From Nitrosopumilus sp. (GTDB lineage Archaea > Thermoproteota > Nitrososphaeria > Nitrososphaerales > Nitrosopumilaceae), in NCBI GenBank assembly GCA_965197525.1, contig OZ240211.1, positions 992,001 through 1,056,000 of the forward strand: DNA of 64,000 nucleotides. The letters are read 5' to 3'. The notes below the pieces were generated by a model. That model saw nothing but the letters and a program-made list of their open reading frames with translations, had not been told where the DNA came from and ran no database searches. The position numbers and the translations under genes were made by a program. Shown piece after piece: positions 244-50,786 of the stretch. Numbering within the stretch: the stretch's first letter is position 1; each line of letters opens with the position of its first letter.

Positions 244-275
244 TTTCTTATGGTTCTGTCGGGTTAACGGGTGCT
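244..275 (+). repeat. Left TSD (TTTCTTAT, 244-251) and left TIR (GGTTCTGTCGGGTTAACGGGTGCT, 252-275)
   Basis: Exact reverse complement of 1508-1531; TSD identical to 1532-1539. Confidence 0.95.
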
Positions 276-280
276 GAGCA

Positions 281-290
281 ATAAATAATT
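281..290 (+). promoter_or_regulatory. Putative TATA box for tnpB
   Basis: ATAAATAATT lies about 20-30 nt upstream of the GTG at 311, just inside the left TIR. Confidence 0.45.
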
Positions 291-310
291 AACCTTGCAT
301 TCTATACTAC

Positions 311-1507
311 GTGTTGAAGGCACACAAGTCAATAGCACAAAAACATACTCCAAACTCCGACCTAATGGACATGATGGTTACATTCACAAAGATGGTCAAC
401 CACTGCATCAGGATCGGGTTAAGGGAAGATACCCACAACATGAAGCGGATGTCTATATTATGTTACCACGAACTCAGAAACTACGACATTTTATCTTCGT
501 ACAAACTCAATGCAATATCAAGAGCTGCCGGCATCCTGGCAAATAGAGATCAATCAGTCAAACGTGGCATCAAAGTTAGGTACCCAGTCGTAAAAAATCC
601 GTTTATCACAAACTGTTACGGCATAAAACATAATGGTGCTCTGTTGACAATCCCGTACAAGAACAGAAACCCTATCAACATCTTGCTGAACGAACACACT
701 CAAAAAATACTGTCCGATCCCGCCTTGACGGTATGCTCATTTTCATTGACTGCCTTCAACATCAGTCTTTGTATTTCGAAAGAAGTACGAGAGATAGAGT
801 GTACCAAGACAGTGGGAATAGACAGAAATCTTAGAAATGTAACCTGTGGAAATTACGAAGAGGTGACATTCTACAAAACCAACAAGTTGTTATCCATCAA
901 AGAGAACACAATACATGCTAGAACTGGTTTTCGCAGAAATGACCGAAGAAAGAAAGGTCAATTCTACAAAGAAAGGCAACGAAGAATGTCCAACAGAACG
1001 AAACAATACCTGCACAGAATCTCAAAAAGCATAGTGGATAACGCTGTCAAGAAGAAGACTGTCATCGTACTTGAGAATCTGAAAGGAATTAGAAAACTGT
1101 ACAAAAAAGGAAACGGTCAAGGTAACAAATACAGGCGTAGAATGAATGGATGGCAATTCTTTGAACTACAACGCCAAATAGAATACAAAGCCCAATGGGT
1201 CGGGCTCCCAATCAAATTTGTAGACCCAAAACGCACGAGCACGCAATGTCCAAGATGCGGAAAGAAACTCCAAGAGGACATGCAACACAGTCGTAAAATG
1301 TCGTGTAATAATTGCGGATTATACATGGATAGAGATATCATCGCTGCCATGAACATATCACGCAAACTGTCCCCTAGGTTTAGGGATAGTAGAGATGGCA
1401 TACATGAAGCGCAGTCTGGCATTTTTGAGCCAGCAATGATGGAATCCAGTACACCGGTAATCCAGATAGTCGATATGTCAAAGTCGGGTAGTCGGTGCGT
1501 TACTTGA
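311..1507 (+). CDS. tnpB: TnpB family RNA-guided endonuclease (398 aa)
   Basis: RuvC-I VGIDRN, RuvC-II VLENL, Zn ribbon CPRCG..CNNCG, RuvC-III DRDIIAAMNI; N-terminal LCYHELR helix typical of archaeal IS1341-like TnpB. Confidence 0.95.
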   Translation: MLKAHKSIAQKHTPNSDLMDMMVTFTKMVNHCIRIGLREDTHNMKRMSILCYHELRNYDILSSYKLNAISRAAGILANRDQSVKRGIKVRYPVVKNPFITNCYGIKHNGALLTIPYKNRNPINILLNEHTQKILSDPALTVCSFSLTAFNISLCISKEVREIECTKTVGIDRNLRNVTCGNYEEVTFYKTNKLLSIKENTIHARTGFRRNDRRKKGQFYKERQRRMSNRTKQYLHRISKSIVDNAVKKKTVIVLENLKGIRKLYKKGNGQGNKYRRRMNGWQFFELQRQIEYKAQWVGLPIKFVDPKRTSTQCPRCGKKLQEDMQHSRKMSCNNCGLYMDRDIIAAMNISRKLSPRFRDSRDGIHEAQSGIFEPAMMESSTPVIQIVDMSKSGSRCVT

Positions 1508-1531
1508 AGCACCCGTTAACCCGACAGAACC
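1367..1531 (+). ncRNA. Putative TnpB omega/reRNA scaffold overlapping the 3' end of tnpB and the right TIR
   Basis: Hairpin 1367-1389 with GGTT loop; hairpin CTGGC..GCCAG; terminal stem 1483-1525; 3' AACC complementary to the GGTT loop. Folded by eye. Confidence 0.6.
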
Positions 1532-35422: not shown

Positions 35423-36244
35423 TCAGTAATTTTCGAGAATTCCAGCCTTATTTCTATGAAAATAGCCAAATTCCTTGTTTGCAGACAGATGCTGACCGTC
35501 AAAGACGGTTCCGTCACGGCATACCAAGTCCTCACCGGTACAACAACTTCCGCATATCCCTACACCACATTTCATCATTCGTTCAAGACTAGCTTGAACA
35601 AAGATATTTCTAGAATGAGCAGATTGGACAATTTTGTGCATCATGATTTCAGGACCGCATGTATAGATGCCGTCATAACTAGTAGTAGTTGTATCGACTA
35701 ATTTTTCAACCAGATCAGTTACAAATCCCTTTTCACCGTAACTGCCATCATCTGTACAAACAGTTACGCGATGATGTACATTACGTTTGAGTAGACTGTT
35801 TGCCAAATCTTCAAAAAACACCTCTTCTTTTGATTGGGCTCCAATTAGGACAGTGACGTCGTCTGAGGGTTTTACAAAGGTAAGCAATCTCATCATAGGA
35901 ACAAGACCCGTTCCTCCGCCAACTAACAAAAGCTTTCCTTCTTTGAGATCAAACGAATTTCCATACGGACCACGGATGCCAATCTGTTGACCTACTTTGG
36001 TGTTAAACAGACCAGTGGATGCAGGACCATGACGTCTTACAGTAAATGCAGCTTTGCCAGACTCTTGAGATATCATCACACTCATAGGTAACTCGTTGAT
36101 TCCAGGTATCCAAACCATTGCGAATTGTCCTGGAAGAACAGCAGACATAACTGCATCTGAAAATACCAGAGTCCGAACAGTAGGAGTCTCATCAATTACC
36201 TGTTCAATTGTAACCATTGTGGGATGATTATTGTTTCTTTGCAA
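35423..36244 (-). CDS. pyrK: Dihydroorotate dehydrogenase electron transfer subunit
   Basis: GGGTG, CGP, MKCGVGICGSC 2Fe-2S motif. Confidence 0.93.
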   Translation of the reverse strand: MQRNNNHPTMVTIEQVIDETPTVRTLVFSDAVMSAVLPGQFAMVWIPGINELPMSVMISQESGKAAFTVRRHGPASTGLFNTKVGQQIGIRGPYGNSFDLKEGKLLLVGGGTGLVPMMRLLTFVKPSDDVTVLIGAQSKEEVFFEDLANSLLKRNVHHRVTVCTDDGSYGEKGFVTDLVEKLVDTTTTSYDGIYTCGPEIMMHKIVQSAHSRNIFVQASLERMMKCGVGICGSCCTGEDLVCRDGTVFDGQHLSANKEFGYFHRNKAGILENY

Positions 36245-37139
36245 GACCTACCATATCCGTTATTGTAGAATGATTTTTTCGCTCCATATAATCTAAAATT
36301 CCGCTGTTAATTTCATCAAATACATCAATCCAATTATCACCTATGGCACTTCCAAGCTGAACAGCAGAGGCGCCGGCTAAAAAGAATTCCACTGCATCTT
36401 CCCATGTGTATATACCGCCACATCCTATTATTGGAACGTCGTATTTTGATGAAATTTCATAGACGCACCTTAGTGCAATAGGCTTGATTGGAGTACCAGA
36501 TAGCCCGCCAAATCTGTTACTAAGTATAGGACGTTGGGTATCAACGTTGATTGCCATTGCACGAACGGTGTTAATGGCAGTGATTGCATCTACCCCGGAA
36601 TGTATTGCGGCCTCTACGGTATCAAGATAATGACTCGTACCCAAGCCTACTTTGGCAATTACAGGAACGTCAGAGGCATTCTTTACATCAGATACAATCT
36701 TCTTTACCAATTCAAGGTCGTCACCAACTTCCAAGCCAACTTTGTCGACGTGGGGACAGGATAGGTTTAGCTCATATGCCATAACATTACAATCTTTGAA
36801 TTCATTTATCATCATCTCAAAATCTCCAGGTATAGAACCTACCAAACTCACTATTATCGGAACATCTTGGTTTGGTTTTATCATCTTGGCAAAGTTTGGT
36901 GCGCCAGGATTTGACAGACCTACTGCATTTATCCAGCCACCGTTTTTTAAACCTAGTATAGTTGGATTCGGATAGCCGTCCCAAGGCTCAGTACTGATGG
37001 ATTTAGTTACAACAGCTCCTGCACCTGACGCGTAGAGTCGTTTAAACACATCTAGTGATATCCCTAAAATTCCAGACGCCAACATTACAGGCCTGTCTAA
37101 CTGAATTGGTCCTATGAGAGTTGCAAGACTGGGTTTCAC
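36228..37139 (-). CDS. pyrD: Dihydroorotate dehydrogenase B, catalytic subunit
   Basis: LASG, NLSCPH, GGLSG, GCGGI. Confidence 0.94.
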   Translation of the reverse strand: MKPSLATLIGPIQLDRPVMLASGILGISLDVFKRLYASGAGAVVTKSISTEPWDGYPNPTILGLKNGGWINAVGLSNPGAPNFAKMIKPNQDVPIIVSLVGSIPGDFEMMINEFKDCNVMAYELNLSCPHVDKVGLEVGDDLELVKKIVSDVKNASDVPVIAKVGLGTSHYLDTVEAAIHSGVDAITAINTVRAMAINVDTQRPILSNRFGGLSGTPIKPIALRCVYEISSKYDVPIIGCGGIYTWEDAVEFFLAGASAVQLGSAIGDNWIDVFDEINSGILDYMERKNHSTITDMVGLAKKQ

Positions 37140-37173
37140 TTTGATTAATAAGATTGCATTTGAATATAACAGT

Positions 37174-37206
37174 TGATTTAGGGTAATTATATACCTAGGT
37201 TACGTT
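37174..37206. repeat. TSD TGATTTAG (37174-37181) and TIR GGTAATTATATACCTAGGTTACGTT (37182-37206)
   Basis: 19/25 match to the reverse complement of 38794-38818; TSD repeated exactly at 38819-38826. Confidence 0.85.
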
Positions 37207-38818
37207 TCTGCACCAAGGTTTTTTTCTGACAGTCCAACAAATCATTCACAGCTTGGTTCTTGCCGTCTTTTTTAGAAACAACATGGTGTAAGCCATGTCT
37301 TGATTCTTCTGTCTTGTGACGATAGTCCCTACCGCCACTAATAATACTGACACTATTAGATGTGCCATTTTTATTAGCTAAAATAATATTTTCCATGCTG
37401 TCACACCTGTAGTTTCCATATCTGTCTACAAGCGGGAGCCTTCGTATGCACGGAAGTCCGTAATGTCTGATGTTTGTGCCGGCGTTATCGTCTGCATCGC
37501 ACAAAAATCCACAGTATACGCATTGAAACACATCCCTGGTAGTTCTAGAGTTGCTGTTGATCATATTGCACTTACTACACGTTATGCTGGTATAATGTGG
37601 AACAATCTCAAGCGTTTTGGTTCCGTGGTTTTCGGCAGTCATTTTTATTCTATCCCCCATTCTTCCCATACCTGCCCCGTAAATCTCCCTGTTAAGGCCG
37701 CTTTTCCGCTTTTCATTTTTTGCAGTCATATTGCCAATGTTTAGTTTTTCCATGACTATCACTCCTGTTCTCATCACAATCTGTTTGGCAAGGAAATTAT
37801 TGTGCTCGGTTCTTCTGTTGTTGAGTGTTTTCTTCATCCTCTTCAGTTTGCGATCCTCTTTTTTCCATCTGTTACTATGCAGTTTGTGGCCGTCTCTTTT
37901 TGACTGTTGTTCTGAGACTACATCGTCTTTTTTTCTCCTACAGGAATAAGGTGTCCTGTAAAAATCGGCATTTATTCCGTCATGAACGATTAGGGATCTC
38001 TTAACCCCCATGTCTATTCCGCATACGACTGTACGATCCGTATTTTTAGGTCTCTGTATTTTTAATGTCAGATGGATCTCAAACGTGCGGTTCGAATCGT
38101 TTGTATTGACAGTGATTTTTTTGGTGTTCTCTACAAGCCTGTATGATACAATGTTGGTCTGGTAGAACTTGTTGGTGCTGTTTTTGTCTTTTTCACATAC
38201 CATCTGCTTTGGAAGATTATTCAAAGACGACAACAGCTCCACCTGACCCATACCAGGCAGGTTCATGTACAGTTTTTTCCACTTTCCCATCCTTAGCGAG
38301 GGATGCTTACCGTTTACTGTTATGGATGCATGTTTTGCATTTTTGGCGTTTCTGAACAAACTGTTTCTGTCAATCCATTTGTTTGGTTTGAGATTTTTAA
38401 ATGACGTGTGCCAGTTGTGGTTCTTGCCACCAGTCTTTTTTGCCCAGTTTCGTACTCTGCGTTTTTTTGCGCAGGATTTCAAATGTTTGTCTGCCGTATC
38501 ATGCCCCTGTTGGAACGCAGTTGTTGCCACATTGGTGTGATATCTGTTGCTCCATGGCATGGTGTGATGTATGTCAGTAATGGTACGGCTTGTCTTGATT
38601 TTGTCATATTTTTCAACCAGTCCTGCCTCTACGCCCATGTTGAAAAAATACGTCTGAAAGTTTGCAATCCTGCGTGCCTTCAATGACAGTTCTTTTGTCT
38701 GCCTTGGTTTTACAATCACTGTTCTATAAATAAAATCTTCTATATCTTTTTCCATCCAGTTAATAGTCTGTGTATTATATATAATTGACGTATAATGTAA
38801 TCCAAGTATGTAATTCCC
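37182..38818 (-). mobile_element. Second TIR-bounded, tnpB-only element (imperfect 25-bp TIRs, 8-bp TSD), 1637 bp
   Basis: TIRs at 37182-37206 and 38794-38818, each directly abutting a TGATTTAG copy; inserted between divergent pyrD and nop5. Confidence 0.85.
37187..38755 (-). CDS. tnpB: Large TnpB family RNA-guided endonuclease (about 522 aa from MEKDIED)
   Basis: RuvC-I CGIDMG, RuvC-II VMEKLNI, Zn ribbon CSKC..CVYC, RuvC-III DADDNAGTNI. The ORF-track start at 38830 lies outside the element, so ATG 38755 is preferred. Confidence 0.88.
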   Translation of the reverse strand: MEKDIEDFIYRTVIVKPRQTKELSLKARRIANFQTYFFNMGVEAGLVEKYDKIKTSRTITDIHHTMPWSNRYHTNVATTAFQQGHDTADKHLKSCAKKRRVRNWAKKTGGKNHNWHTSFKNLKPNKWIDRNSLFRNAKNAKHASITVNGKHPSLRMGKWKKLYMNLPGMGQVELLSSLNNLPKQMVCEKDKNSTNKFYQTNIVSYRLVENTKKITVNTNDSNRTFEIHLTLKIQRPKNTDRTVVCGIDMGVKRSLIVHDGINADFYRTPYSCRRKKDDVVSEQQSKRDGHKLHSNRWKKEDRKLKRMKKTLNNRRTEHNNFLAKQIVMRTGVIVMEKLNIGNMTAKNEKRKSGLNREIYGAGMGRMGDRIKMTAENHGTKTLEIVPHYTSITCSKCNMINSNSRTTRDVFQCVYCGFLCDADDNAGTNIRHYGLPCIRRLPLVDRYGNYRCDSMENIILANKNGTSNSVSIISGGRDYRHKTEESRHGLHHVVSKKDGKNQAVNDLLDCQKKTLVQKRNLGI

Positions 38819-38826
38819 TGATTTAG
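38794..38826. repeat. TIR (38794-38818) and TSD TGATTTAG (38819-38826)
   Basis: Reverse complement of the TIR is GGGAATTACATACTTGGATTACATT. Confidence 0.85.
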
Positions 38827-38866
38827 GCATGGTACTTTTTTAAAGGTGGTTTAAAAGTAATTAGGT

Positions 38867-40162
38867 ATGTATTCTGTAATATTAACAGAACTAGGGATTT
38901 CTGTATTCAATGATGGAAAGCTAGACAAGGCATTTGCATTCTCAAACGCAGTAAAAGAGTATCTTTTAATAAAAAACAAGGAATCAAAACTCAACGAGCT
39001 TGTAAACTATCTAACAACGCTTCAGAGAGGAGTGTCAGTTAGTGATGAATCATTACTTGCGATTTTAAAAAAACATTCTATTGACTGTTACATTATGGAC
39101 GCATCAGAGTTGGAGACTGTTCAGGCATCAAAACCTCAGATTATTGTTGATTCGGGTTTTGCCTCAAACATGCAAGATACGCTTGGAAAACTCAGAGGAT
39201 TTGCATTAGAATTATCATCCTCAAAAGTCACAGAGATATCAGAGAGTCCCGATTTACACATAATTCAAGCAATCAACTCTTTAGACGAGGTTGACAAGAT
39301 TATAAATCAGCTCAGCTCAAGACTAAAAGAGTGGTACGGGTTGCATTTTCCAGAGTTGGAGAATGTGATTGATAGCATTAATGGATATGCACAAATAGTA
39401 ATGGCAGGCAAGCGAGAGTCATTAACAAAACAGGTTTTTGAAGATGCAGGGTTTCCAGAAACAAAAGTAGAGATGCTGGTGCTAATCTCATCGAAGAGCA
39501 GAGGAGGAGATATCTCAGACATTAATTTGACAATTGTACAGTCAATTGCAAAGCAGATTTTAGACTTTCATGATTTGCGTAAGAAGCTTGAAGATCATGT
39601 AGAGTCAGAGATGCAGAGAATTGCACCCAACCTCACAATAATACTGGGAGCAGCGGTAGGCGCAAGAATGTTGGGAAGGGCAGGCAGCCTAAAGAGGTTG
39701 GCGTTGCTTCCTGCAAGTACGATACAAGTTTTGGGAGCAGAAAAAGCGTTGTTTAGATCGCTAAAAACTGGAGCCCAACCGCCAAAACATGGATTGTTGT
39801 TTCAACACGCAGCAGTACATGCAGCTCCTAGATGGCAGAGAGGAAAGATTGCACGTGCAGTCGCTGCAAAGACAGTGATTGCTGCAAGGGTAGATGTGTA
39901 TGGAGAAGGAGTAAACAGTACGTTGCTTGAAAAACTCAACATACGAGTAGATGAGATTAGTAAAAAGTATGAGAATCCAACGGAAAAAGATATCAGACAG
40001 CCGTCATCTCAGCCTATGTTCAAGCGCGGAGATAGAGATGGGTACAAGGGCAACAGGGAAGACAGGGATAGGTTCAGAACCGGTAGCAGAAGAGAGAGCC
40101 GAGGGAATAACGAGAGATCAAATTCAAAGAAGAAGAAGAGAAAGAAGTTTGGAAGAAGATAA
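38867..40162 (+). CDS. nop5: C/D box sRNP protein Nop5 (Nop56/58)
   Basis: EWYGLHFPEL, QVLGAEKALF, PKHGLLF. Confidence 0.95.
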   Translation: MYSVILTELGISVFNDGKLDKAFAFSNAVKEYLLIKNKESKLNELVNYLTTLQRGVSVSDESLLAILKKHSIDCYIMDASELETVQASKPQIIVDSGFASNMQDTLGKLRGFALELSSSKVTEISESPDLHIIQAINSLDEVDKIINQLSSRLKEWYGLHFPELENVIDSINGYAQIVMAGKRESLTKQVFEDAGFPETKVEMLVLISSKSRGGDISDINLTIVQSIAKQILDFHDLRKKLEDHVESEMQRIAPNLTIILGAAVGARMLGRAGSLKRLALLPASTIQVLGAEKALFRSLKTGAQPPKHGLLFQHAAVHAAPRWQRGKIARAVAAKTVIAARVDVYGEGVNSTLLEKLNIRVDEISKKYENPTEKDIRQPSSQPMFKRGDRDGYKGNREDRDRFRTGSRRESRGNNERSNSKKKKRKKFGRR

Positions 40163-47243: not shown

Positions 47244-49439
47244 ATGATGTATGTGAACAGATTTATCACTACTGCGACTATGACTATTACCACTAAACGA
47301 ATTCTTATTTCAGCAGCGGTGCTACTAGTGATGTTTTCATTCACATTAACGATATCTGAGCCTACAGATGCGTATGCTGAAGGAGCTACAATGACAAGCA
47401 TTGCACTAGAAGAGACGATAGTATTGGAACTAACAAATGATTCAGATGTGGGTATAGTCATGTTAAGAATTTGGCCTGAACCGGACTTTAATTTTCAATC
47501 ATTCAAGACTGAGAGAGGATGGGCAGGGGTAAAGAATTCGGTGGGCGTAATTATATTTACAACAACAGAGCCAATAGGACCTTCAGAGTCAGTAAAGTTT
47601 GGAGTAAAGACGGACAGACCTATTCAAAATATCAATTGGAAGGCATTAGACGGCCAAGAAAATATCATAGGTCTAGAGAAACTATTCCTAACTCAGATGC
47701 CTACAAGTGGTGATAAGGATACGCAGGATCCCATAATACCAAATAAACAGGTAGAACAAGGGGTAACTAGCGAATCAACGTTCAGAATAATTCCAGAGAG
47801 ACCAAATGTTGGCTCACCGATTAGAGTAACAGGAGAAGAGTTTGGTCCATCAGAAAAGTTTTCTTTTCATATTAATGACAAACAGATTGGTACCTTTACT
47901 ACAAACGAAGATGGTAACTTTATGACCACAATGAAGATTCCTGATGATCAAGAGGCAGACAGAACAGAGTTCATAGTAAGAGATCAAGAAGGAGAGGAGA
48001 AGACCTTGAGTATCAGGATAACTGATGTCCCTGACAGAACTGTTCCCTCACATAGCATTCCGCTTACGATAAATGGAATTCCAAATGTTGTTTATCAAGG
48101 CGACCTTTTGAATATTTTTGGAACCGGAAACCCCGGCAGTGCGATAACTGCGATAATCACTACGCCTACAGGTGAGATTATCAATTCTAGAACAGCAGAG
48201 ATAGATAGCAAGGGGGACTGGAAGATAGATGAGCCGGTAATTGTATCAGCAGATAGTCAATTTGGCTTGTACACTGCAACAATTACTGACGGACGAGAAA
48301 GTAAACAAATTACATGGACCGTTGAATCAGATAAGAAGATTCTCATCCAGCCAACTAATATAAGATTTGAACGGGGAGATACCATATCATTTAATGGTAC
48401 GGCAGTACCCAACAAACCAATTGACTTGACATTAGAAGATCCTCTTGGAACAGAGATTGGTTCAAGGATCATACAAGTAAATAATGCAGGTGATGTGACA
48501 GTAGAATTTCCAACTATACCAAGCATAGATGAAGGAACGTATACATTGATTGCGGTTCAAGACGGACGTACAGAGTTTGTTTATGTAGGAGTAGGAGAGT
48601 TGCCAGTAACGCCAATCAGATTTGAGTTTGATAAACTAAATTATAAAAAAGGAGATACGGCAATAATCACACTATCAGGCAAGAAATCAGATACTATTGA
48701 TTTGGTGATAATTGATACGTCTGATAGGCCAAAAGGAAATTCGACATCAATTAAATTGCAGTCAGATGGACGTGCAACGCACGGTATAAAATTAGATGAC
48801 TATAAAACCGGAGTGTATACTGCAGTTGTCAGCAAGGGCGGCACCCAGAGTGAAAAAACGTTCACAGTAGGCCTAAAGACAACATTTGGAGAGATTGACA
48901 TAAACACCACAAAGACAGAGTATACTAAAGGAGACCCAATACTGATTTTAGGAAGTGTGGATGGTCCTCATGCTCTTCTTACAATAAGCATGATAAACCC
49001 TGCAGGGGAGACAGTAAAGAGTATAGAGACGTTTTCAGATTTAAATGGAAAGATATCTGATGATTCGTTTAGAATTCCAGTAGATGCGGAGATAGGAGAG
49101 TGGACAATTAAAGCACAAGGCGCATCAAGTTTCCATAATGTTAGTATTCAGGTACAAGCGGATATTACAGAAGGAGTAGTAATAGATGTAAGAGATAGTG
49201 ATTTATCTACAGGACAGAACAGAATTATAGATATTCATGTATCTGGTGCAAAAGACAAAGTGCGCATGGAGATTATAGCAGCAGACGGCGAGGTGGTAGC
49301 CATACTAGAAGGGAGCATAACTAATAACGGCGATCACGCTCAACCATGGTCCATTCCAGATAATATTGTACCTGGAACATACAGGATCACAGTCACAGAT
49401 CATCGCACCAGTAATGAAACAACTTTTGAGATTCAATAA
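47244..49439 (+). CDS. Large secreted Ig-like repeat surface protein
   Basis: Signal-peptide-like segment; repeated beta-sandwich-like units ending G.YT.. Confidence 0.75.
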   Translation: MMYVNRFITTATMTITTKRILISAAVLLVMFSFTLTISEPTDAYAEGATMTSIALEETIVLELTNDSDVGIVMLRIWPEPDFNFQSFKTERGWAGVKNSVGVIIFTTTEPIGPSESVKFGVKTDRPIQNINWKALDGQENIIGLEKLFLTQMPTSGDKDTQDPIIPNKQVEQGVTSESTFRIIPERPNVGSPIRVTGEEFGPSEKFSFHINDKQIGTFTTNEDGNFMTTMKIPDDQEADRTEFIVRDQEGEEKTLSIRITDVPDRTVPSHSIPLTINGIPNVVYQGDLLNIFGTGNPGSAITAIITTPTGEIINSRTAEIDSKGDWKIDEPVIVSADSQFGLYTATITDGRESKQITWTVESDKKILIQPTNIRFERGDTISFNGTAVPNKPIDLTLEDPLGTEIGSRIIQVNNAGDVTVEFPTIPSIDEGTYTLIAVQDGRTEFVYVGVGELPVTPIRFEFDKLNYKKGDTAIITLSGKKSDTIDLVIIDTSDRPKGNSTSIKLQSDGRATHGIKLDDYKTGVYTAVVSKGGTQSEKTFTVGLKTTFGEIDINTTKTEYTKGDPILILGSVDGPHALLTISMINPAGETVKSIETFSDLNGKISDDSFRIPVDAEIGEWTIKAQGASSFHNVSIQVQADITEGVVIDVRDSDLSTGQNRIIDIHVSGAKDKVRMEIIAADGEVVAILEGSITNNGDHAQPWSIPDNIVPGTYRITVTDHRTSNETTFEIQ

Positions 49440-49464
49440 ATAATATCAAACAATTTTATTTCCC

Positions 49465-49995
49465 TTGGACTGGTTTGATATTGTGAATCTGAAAGATATA
49501 ATAAAAGAGTATCAAGATTTTCCAAAAAAAGGCATATTATTTAGAGATTTTAGTCCAGTGCTAAGAGACCCAACAGCACTATCATTTATTGCAGATGAAT
49601 TTACCAAGCATTTTGATCCAAAAGATGTAGATATGTTTGTAGGAGTCGAGTCACGTGGGTTTATTCTAGCATCGATTTTAGCCTCAAGGTACAACAAGGG
49701 CATGGTAATGATTAGAAAAGCAGGCAAGTTACCCGGAGAGACTGCAAAGATATCATATACCATAGAGTATGGAGAAGATACGATAGAGATTCAAAAAAAT
49801 ATAATCAGAGACGGGGAACGGATAGTCATATGCGACGATCTGCTTGCAACCGGCGGAACTGCAAAGGCTACTGCTGAACTAGTCGAAAAGGCAGGTGGAA
49901 GTATTTCAGGCTTGTTGTTCATAATCGAGCTGACAGAACTTGACGGAATCAAAAAAATTGACAACTATATTTGCAAATCATTGGTGAAATACTAG
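49465..49995 (+). CDS. apt: Adenine phosphoribosyltransferase
   Basis: [30 protein letters not shown]. Confidence 0.96.
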
Positions 49996-50786
49996 TGGAC
50001 AAAGACGTAGAGATTGGGATATTTGGCGGAACCGGAATCTATGATCCAGGCTTATTGGAAAATTCGCATGGGATAGACGTGGATACGCCTTTTGGAAAGC
50101 CCTCAGATACAATAACAGTTGGAACCTTTAACAAAAGAAAGATTGCATTTCTTCCAAGACATGGGAAGAACCATACCATTCCACCACATATGATTAATTT
50201 TAAAGCAAATATTTGGGCATTCAAAGAACTCGGAGTTACAAGAATTATAGCACCGTCAGCAGTAGGAAGCCTGAGAGAAGAGTTAGAACCAGGACATTTT
50301 GCACTGCCTACACAGTTCTTAGATTTTACAAAATCAAGGGATGGTTCGTTCTCAAAAGAAGGTCAAGTTATTCATATTTCAGTTGCAGATCCCTTTTGCC
50401 CAGAACTGCAGTCATCAGTACTAAAAGTAACCAAAGCCCAGGATATGAAGATGCATACGGATTGTATATATGTCTGCATTGAAGGTCCGCGGTTCTCAAC
50501 TAAAGCCGAATCAAAATTTTTCAGGCATCTAGACGCTGATATTATTGGAATGACGCTTGTACCAGAATGTCAGCTGGCAAGGGAGGCACAGATGTGCTAT
50601 GTATCCATCTCGACTGTTACAGATTATGACGTCTGGGCAGAAAAACCAGTGACTGCAAAAGAAGTCTTAGAGACACTCTCAAAGAATGTAAAGAAGACAA
50701 AACAGGTACTAGCACAGCTAATAGATGTAATTCCTGAGAGTAGAGGTTGTGCATGTTCTAGAGCTCTGGATGATGCAGAGTTCTAG
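49995..50786 (+). CDS. mtnP: S-methyl-5'-thioadenosine phosphorylase
   Basis: IFGGTG, FLPRHG, EGPRFST, GMT, VTDYD. Confidence 0.94.

Follow-up and report, generated by a model that had tools for sequence, protein, structure and literature searches.

The 64,000-nucleotide window analyzed here, positions 992001–1056000 of the single contig (C1) of a 2.21-Mb Nitrosopumilus genome (G000; 39.6% G+C, 99% complete), comes from a sponge-associated ammonia-oxidizing archaeon, a thaumarchaeal symbiont. At window positions 37182–38818 it contains a 1637-bp element whose single gene is tnpB. The element is a real, recently mobile unit of 1.6 kb that carries only tnpB and a likely guide RNA and must, therefore, borrow a transposase encoded elsewhere. 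It is very probably a non-autonomous member of an IS1595-family clade with GGGAATTAYATAC ends, its transposase having been lost or never carried. Mobilization in trans by a DDE transposase of the IS1595 type is the most likely way in which the element works.

Boundaries, copies and insertion sites

A preliminary description of the window had reported an exact 8-bp direct repeat, a 25-bp imperfect inverted repeat abutting each copy of it, a tnpB stop codon inside one of the inverted repeats, a TATA-like run near the opposite end and the lack of a transposase. All of these features were confirmed. Both copies of the duplication read TGATTTAG, and the arms of the inverted repeat match at 19 of 25 positions. 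The TAA stop of tnpB (37187–37189, minus strand) lies within the left arm, the 3′ end of the gene being 5 bp from the transposon end. No transposase was found inside the element, the sole long open reading frame (ORF) of which is of the TnpB type and matches OrfB_IS605 and Cas12f1-like_TNB in Pfam. Since no Zn-ribbon plus DDE_Tnp_IS1595 gene is present inside, the element was filed as non-autonomous and not as an insertion sequence (IS) proper. The combination of an exact 8-mer direct repeat with an abutting 25-bp inverted repeat of at least 19/25 matches occurs at two sites in the window, this element and another TnpB element at 252–1531, and in 0 of 200 block-shuffled windows.

A 547-aa ORF that reaches position 38830 is a read-through artifact of a frame that is open across the end of the element; the four other intact sibling genes code for 522 aa and start with MEKDIED. 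The TATA-like run is located upstream of the real start codon (Table 1) and coincides with the best promoter-like match on the minus strand of the region, in a scan of bacterial type that is only indicative. This arrangement suggests that the tnpB mRNA is leaderless and is transcribed from the TATA-like box about 25 nt before the ATG.

A genome search for siblings with the same ends, proposed in the preliminary description, revealed at least six further copies in G000, 95–98% identical to the 1637-bp unit and with the same first and last bases. Exact 8-bp duplications flank the window copy and six siblings, an internal-deletion derivative of 386 bp among them, and each duplication has a different sequence. 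The derivative retains just 73 nt of the tnpB 3′ end and, therefore, does not resemble a guide-RNA-only remnant. Five copies have an intact 522-aa gene (93–100% protein identity), and three of the eight copies are interrupted or degenerate. As for the interrupting sequences, the 16.8-kb insertion that splits one sibling (C1:33774–50590, L031) contains an IS4-like transposase gene (49158–50261) directly beside a truncated tnpB element. The 386-bp derivative is abutted by a DDE_Tnp_1 IS with CAGTAGTCGGAAATGTAC ends, and the same IS type is found inside the sibling at 1330018–1332960 (1331426–1332729).

Comparison of the copies also clarified the structure of the ends. The family consensus starts with GGGAATTA at both ends, and its two arms match at 20 of 25 positions. 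The additional mismatch of the window copy is private to this copy and results from the replacement of G by T at the third position of one end. The IS1-like GGTAAT to which the preliminary description had drawn attention is thus a private change, the family end being GGGAAT. The remaining five mismatches are common to all copies, and the arms are, therefore, naturally asymmetric and not old. Of the two readings that had been offered for the imperfect repeats, natural asymmetry stands and great age does not.

The element is inserted between the back-to-back core promoters of pyrD and nop5 (37140–37181 and 38827–38866). The two genes are divergent neighbors in 11 congeneric genomes, with a spacer of 84–86 bp (85 bp in nine) between them, and these spacers align to the window flanks after removal of the element and one TGATTTAG. 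Each has one TTGATT-type site and no inverted-repeat sequence, in agreement with the earlier prediction of a single TGATTTAG-like site in a spacer of about 80 bp. The spacer alignment shows that the TATA-like TTATATTC of pyrD remains between the element and the pyrD start codon and that the TTTTTTAAAGG box upstream of nop5 is intact; both TATA-like boxes, conserved in the 11 congeners, stay beside their genes. Read-through from tnpB would enter pyrD, which is on the same strand.

Unoccupied sites were also found in public sequencing runs. A contig of run X5, from a related organism about 93% identical in this region, joins position 37176 to 38823 and thus represents an empty site, and the same run holds the element at another place, flanked by CATATGGC. 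A contig of run X4 shows a copy next to sequence that in G000, at 1570781, runs on without interruption. Since both runs carry copies at sites that are unoccupied in G000 and the window site is empty in X5, the insertion is recent and the family is polymorphic among strains.

Table 1. Features of the element and its neighborhood (window coordinates) and related elements in G000 and in the congener genome G110
Feature	Location	Strand	Remarks
Target-site duplication, left copy	37174–37181		TGATTTAG; one copy only in the reconstructed empty site and at the site in 11 congeners
Target-site duplication, right copy	38819–38826		TGATTTAG; exact 8-bp match to left copy
Terminal inverted repeat, tnpB 3′ side	37182–37206		family consensus start GGGAATTATATACCTAGGTTAC; T at position 3 in the window copy
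Terminal inverted repeat, tnpB 5′ side	38794–38818		reverse complement GGGAATTACATACTTGGATTAC...
Putative guide-RNA-like (omega RNA) scaffold	37182–37336	−	overlaps the tnpB 3′ end; supported by covariation (alignments A1, A2, A3)
tnpB	37187–38755	−	522 aa plus stop; Pfam PF01385, PF07282
TATA-like run	38775–38784	−	TTATATATAA; ~25 nt upstream of the tnpB ATG at 38755
pyrD (dihydroorotate dehydrogenase)	36228–37139	−	Pfam DHO_dh, E 1.9e-57
nop5 (Nop domain)	38867–40162	+	Pfam Nop, E 3e-67
Sibling	G000 545581–547217		duplication TTTTTTTA
Sibling	G000 874687–876323		duplication AATTGATT
Sibling	G000 879513–881149		duplication ATTGAATT
Sibling	G000 1330018–1332960		duplication TTGATTAC; interrupted by a 1.3-kb IS
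Sibling	G000 33714...52173		duplication TTCAGTAG, intact; split by a 16.8-kb insertion
Sibling	G000 from 1612198		degenerate far end
Internal-deletion derivative	G000 562158–562543 (386 bp)		duplication GTTAACAT
GGGAATTA-ended tnpB-only elements and truncated transposase	G110 loci L035, L043, L050, L054–L062, L068		

End family and candidate transposases

The DDE family of the element had been left tentative among IS1, IS1595, ISL3 and IS256, and a search for an autonomous DDE transposase with matching ends had been proposed. Such transposases were found, and they are of the IS1595 type. In Nitrosopumilaceae and in many bacterial metagenome-assembled genomes (MAGs), autonomous IS1595-family elements with 8-bp duplications have the GGGAATTAYATAC end as well. 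This end is common to loci L092, L103, L110, L112, L113, L115, L118 and L173 (13-nt ends, 8-bp duplications), and the match to autonomous IS1595 elements spans at least 13 nt in many genomes.

Two-gene elements in the genome of a sister genus (G145) link these ends to both proteins. At locus L076 (2106–4667), tnpB (441 aa) and the gene of a 320-aa transposase of the Zn-ribbon/DDE_Tnp_IS1595 type lie together between GGGAATTAT ends with CCGGTATC flanks, and a second two-gene copy (L077) has GGGAATTAT ends and TACCGCGA flanks. A search of the genomes with the G145 transposase as query returned 236 relatives. Among the 80 loci kept, tnpB is present in four, all of them from Nitrosopumilaceae; bacterial loci of the kept set often have DNA methyltransferase-like genes instead of tnpB. 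Ends of the GGGAATTATATAC type and 8-bp, mostly AT-rich duplications (e.g. TAAAATTA, AATTGATT, TTTTTTTA, CAAAGTTT) occur both on plain IS1595 elements, from Nitrosopumilaceae MAGs, and on cargo-bearing ones, from many MAGs of sponge-associated types of bacteria. Autonomous cargo-carrying elements with GGGAATTATATAC ends were observed at L103, L110, L113, L115, L118 and L173, on bacterial and archaeal MAG contigs. The MAG hosts include Poribacteria, Dehalococcoidia, Binatia and Thalassobaculaceae, which we take to be typical sponge associates; this distribution suggests that IS1595 elements are exchanged within the sponge-associate community.

The same ends recur on other elements whose only gene is tnpB. 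A divergent one, with a 443-aa TnpB and 8-bp duplications, is found in G000 at 1984842–1986191, and at least 12 GGGAATTA-ended elements from several divergent families (440–463 aa), with copies up to 99.5% identical, are present in the congener genome G110. Metagenome contigs code for homologs of the window TnpB with 41–80% identity; at the seven such loci that were fetched, the same kind of ends was found in all seven and an 8-bp duplication in six (five exact, one 7/8). Duplications of 8 bp also occur in G110, G145 and metagenome relatives. TnpBs encoded between GGGAATTA ends score 82–273 bits with each other, compared to 20–56 bits with the TnpB of GGTTCTGT-ended elements, and the end type thus tracks the TnpB lineage.

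The IS1595 family is defined by transposase architecture together with 8-bp duplications, and its eukaryotic Merlin relatives have terminal GG ends (PMC8101967). Because the architecture and the duplications define the family and the ends match, the IS1595 assignment can be regarded as settled.

Three other ways of moving the element were weighed against this assignment. TnpB normally rides IS200/IS605-type elements, tnpB-only copies of which are common, and TTGAT-like words occur in several target sites, as might be expected if the element were an ordinary IS1341-group member moved in trans by a Y1 TnpA, its inverted repeat and duplication being incidental. However, at least seven copies have exact inverted-repeat boundaries, each with its own 8-bp duplication, and the same ends bound IS1595 transposase genes. 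In addition, the profiles of Y1 TnpA (PF01797) and serine recombinase (PF00239) found no match in the 99%-complete, single-contig G000, in which 52 matches to the TnpB TNB domain are thus present without any Y1 or serine TnpA. We consider this explanation extremely improbable.

A different DDE transposase of G000 might also move the cassette, for example the IS6-like enzyme of the GGTTCTGT-ended TnpB family or that of another family with 8-bp duplications. IS6-type elements, too, give duplications of this length, the IS1595 gene of G000 described below lacks cognate ends, and G110 has near-identical copies with no intact IS1595 transposase. Yet the multi-copy DDE families examined in G000 (DDE_Tnp_4, three DDE_Tnp_1 types, IS630 types, IS3, rve and IS6-like) all lack GGGAATTA ends, and it is with autonomous IS1595 elements that the 13-nt end match is shared and with an IS1595 transposase and tnpB that the ends are physically linked in G145. 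Movement by another DDE enzyme is, in our estimation, improbable.

Finally, TnpB itself could make a staggered cut, the 8-bp duplication then resulting from RNA-guided insertion with no DDE transposase involved. Nucleases of the Cas12 type do cut with a 5′ stagger, and the fresh G110 copies coexist with no intact cognate transposase. We give this scheme almost no credence, as IS1595 elements with a transposase but without tnpB have the same ends and 8-bp duplications, and the target sites show no guide-like relation to one another.

With an IS1595-type enzyme thus preferred, candidates for a trans-acting transposase were sought in G000 by profile search, which revealed two PF12762 genes. The gene at 615175–616176 is intact and codes for a 333-aa protein with a zinc ribbon (PF12762 E 5e-33) and 55% full-length identity to the G145 transposase. 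Its closest relative found is the L173 enzyme (71% in the best segment), whose gene lies in an element (3.9 kb) bounded by perfect GGGAATTATATACAATAGTAC ends and a CTTTATTT duplication; the L173 ends nearly match those of L171, a tnpB-only relative of the window TnpB. The gene at 615175–616176 may be a stranded copy still able to act in trans. The second IS1595-type gene (L032, 284 aa) was rejected as a helper, being 25% identical to the G145 enzyme and having no such ends. Solo GGGGATTATATAC ends at G000 614150 and 1395933 were likewise rejected as ends of an autonomous copy: neither a partner end nor a duplication was found, and a tRNA-Leu gene and a GGTTCTGT-type end intervene before the IS1595 transposase sequence. 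Each of these solo ends (L029, position 351, and L030; GGGGATTATATACATGGGTATACTT...) is directly followed by a GGTTCTGT-type end, and about 0.95 kb beyond each lies the 5′ part of an IS1595 transposase gene. The tRNA gene adjoining the intact transposase gene is tRNA-Leu(CAG).

A putative guide-RNA-like scaffold at the tnpB 3′ end

The window TnpB aligns with solved structures of ISDra2-type TnpB over its RuvC and zinc-finger parts. The RuvC D-E-D residues are found in GIDMG, VMEKLN and DADDNAG and align to the catalytic positions of 9yyg, a solved ISDra2-like TnpB-type nuclease; a C4 zinc finger (CSKC...CVYC) is also present. On this alignment, the catalytic triad is intact.

The predicted RNA scaffold covers the tnpB 3′ end. 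In the window, its closing stem would be formed by GACAG (37313–37309) paired with CUGUC, and its last hairpin by ACCUUGG paired with CCUAGGU of the inner inverted repeat. Counterparts of the closing stem, as read from alignments, are AACAG/CUGUU in G110 and GGCGC/GCGCC in the 443-aa family. Three alignments were analyzed for covariation: A1, with 12 elements from all families; A2, with eight G110 elements; and A3, with the last 200 nt of the seven metagenome homolog elements and of the window element. In A3, a consensus fold of 29 pairs was obtained. Its cells are 92.5% paired, compared to 82.3 ± 1.2 in shuffles and 28–44% when the partner is slid, and 11 pairs show compensatory changes, compared to 5.3 ± 1.6 in shuffles. 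The A2 fold has compensatory changes in 19 of its 39 pairs. In A1, an invariant GAAAA run (GAAAAA in 11 of the 12 elements), then AC, precedes a 6-bp stem; this terminal stem, the 3′ strand of which is the inner inverted repeat, is 94% paired (75% in shuffles) with four compensatory pairs. The single-sequence fold of the region is modest (z = −2.1), and no Rfam match was detected in 36900–39100 at E up to 1. Overall, covariation supports the prediction of a structured RNA that overlaps the tnpB 3′ end and takes its last stem from the inverted repeat.

The five intact G000 copies differ by too few substitutions for constraint on the RNA to be told from constraint on the protein. A contig from a sponge metatranscriptome (X1) spans 37185–37367 and continues for 254 nt into another flank; it was not used as evidence, since neither the ends nor the levels of transcripts can be read from contigs and the sequence may stem from carried-over DNA.

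Working model and relation to known systems

In the working model, an IS1595-type DDE transposase supplied in trans, for which the single intact gene at G000 615175–616176 is the candidate, would bind both ends, cut the target with an 8-bp stagger and insert the cassette. The five fixed differences between the ends would reflect a second role of the 3′ end, which has to form the last guide-RNA stem as well. Transcription would read through this end, and the flank, with or after the 8-bp duplication, would act as guide, as in eukaryotic Fanzor1. TnpB would then cut matching DNA and, by analogy only, might favor retention or spread of the cassette. That a Nitrosopumilaceae TnpB lineage co-evolved with an IS1595 (Merlin-related) transposon, so closely that the inverted repeat bound by the transposase also serves as the last guide-RNA stem, is a tentative proposal to which we give slightly less than even weight. 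If true, it would constitute a prokaryotic counterpart of the Fanzor1 arrangement, in which RNA-guided cutting is coupled to a transposon with variable 8-bp duplications and no fixed neighboring motif.

Several observations weigh against this model. The G000 transposase gene has no recognizable GGGAATTA ends nearby and adjoins a tRNA-Leu gene, and its product is just 55% identical to the transposase physically linked with tnpB. The one IS1595 transposase that PF12762 revealed in G110 is truncated and joined to unrelated sequence (L068 937–1941), which is a weak point for a trans helper since this genome has copies up to 99.5% identical. The window copy itself has the private change in one end. 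Part of the scaffold conservation is protein-level, because the scaffold overlaps coding sequence. Lastly, no consensus that could represent the short target-adjacent motif required by a TnpB was found in eight elements (six from G000, two from metagenomes) in bases beside or within the duplication, the positions searched being those 5′ of the duplication (tnpB 5′ side), the last duplication bases and the first ones beyond it. In six of six G110 elements, but not in the family of the window element, the base before the duplication on the tnpB 5′ side is a G.

Some of these observations would also fit copies that are fossils of a family no longer mobile in G000, its TnpB being kept for a host function or decaying: the transposase gene lacks ends, three of the eight copies are interrupted or degenerate, and the end of the window copy is mutated. 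Against this stand the five intact and closely similar 522-aa genes, the insertion sites that differ between related strains in the public runs, and the site that is empty in the strain about 93% identical; we consider the fossil explanation unlikely.

Trans-mobilization by an IS1595-type transposase has precedents among TnpB systems. The main text of Altae-Tran et al. (2023, PNAS; PMC10691335) describes six TnpB branches (DDE-1 to DDE-6) associated with DDE transposases, all with inverted terminal repeats and the tnpB 3′ end within 250 bp of the transposon end; for some solo TnpBs, whose ends are nearly identical to those of transposase-bearing systems, mobilization in trans is inferred there, and IS630 alone is named as DDE partner. 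The window element shares with these systems, as presented in that text, the inverted ends, the position of the tnpB 3′ end and the existence of solo copies with the ends of transposase-bearing relatives; it differs in its host, a thaumarchaeal sponge symbiont, and in that both the number of copies and their recent activity are on record here. The DDE partners given in a 2026 review, which calls such prokaryotic elements rare, are ISL2, IS630 and IS1031, without IS1595 (PMC13565253). A full-text literature search, judged by titles and abstracts, found no paper on an IS1595–TnpB pairing. IS1595 is thus not named as a TnpB partner in these sources; DDE-associated TnpB, solo copies included, is already known from Altae-Tran et al.

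With the IS1595 family (PMC8101967) the element shares 8-bp duplications and inverted repeats starting with GG. Related autonomous elements encode a Zn-ribbon plus DDE_Tnp_IS1595 transposase and carry passenger genes, whereas the window element has no transposase, an RNA-guided nuclease and the associated RNA are its predicted passenger, and one end of the element appears to be shaped to form part of the guide RNA. A parallel in organization is provided by the cut-and-paste transposons that carry Fanzor1 in eukaryotes and in eukaryotic viruses (Yoon et al. 2023, NAR, PMC10711439). These are also non-autonomous, with inverted repeats and a duplication and only a TnpB-like nuclease, and their inverted repeat and duplication are predicted to lie in the RNA scaffold, the RNA reaching ~15 nt past the duplication. 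An inverted repeat within the guide-RNA scaffold is predicted for the window element as well, which differs in being prokaryotic and in the canonical active site of its TnpB. With tnpB-only IS200/IS605 elements of the IS1341 group it has in common a single tnpB gene, the lack of a transposase and many copies; those elements lack both inverted repeats and a duplication and rely on a Y1 TnpA, and the window element differs on all three points.

TnpB is thought to persist by repairing the loss of IS200/IS605 and IS607 elements, which excise scarlessly. The present case bears on how, or whether, TnpB benefits a DDE transposon, whose movement leaves duplications behind. With several copies, recent activity, identifiable autonomous relatives, a candidate helper and covariation that places one end in the RNA, the family makes a tractable prokaryotic model for a Fanzor-type arrangement.

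The other TnpB element of the window (252–1531), one of about 37 copies in a family whose TnpB has 412 aa, has GGTTCTGT-type inverted repeats (24/25) and a TTTCTTAT duplication. The preliminary description had called the element studied here a second, unrelated TnpB packaged in inverted repeats with an 8-bp duplication; it is indeed the second such element, but the two proteins are distant homologs (23% identity over 248 aa) and not unrelated. G000 as a whole is very rich in IS elements, including IS630, IS110, IS3, IS4/IS5-like and IS6-like types, and a 165-bp miniature element with GGGGATTATATA inverted ends and a TTTCATAT duplication is present at C1:891809–891973.

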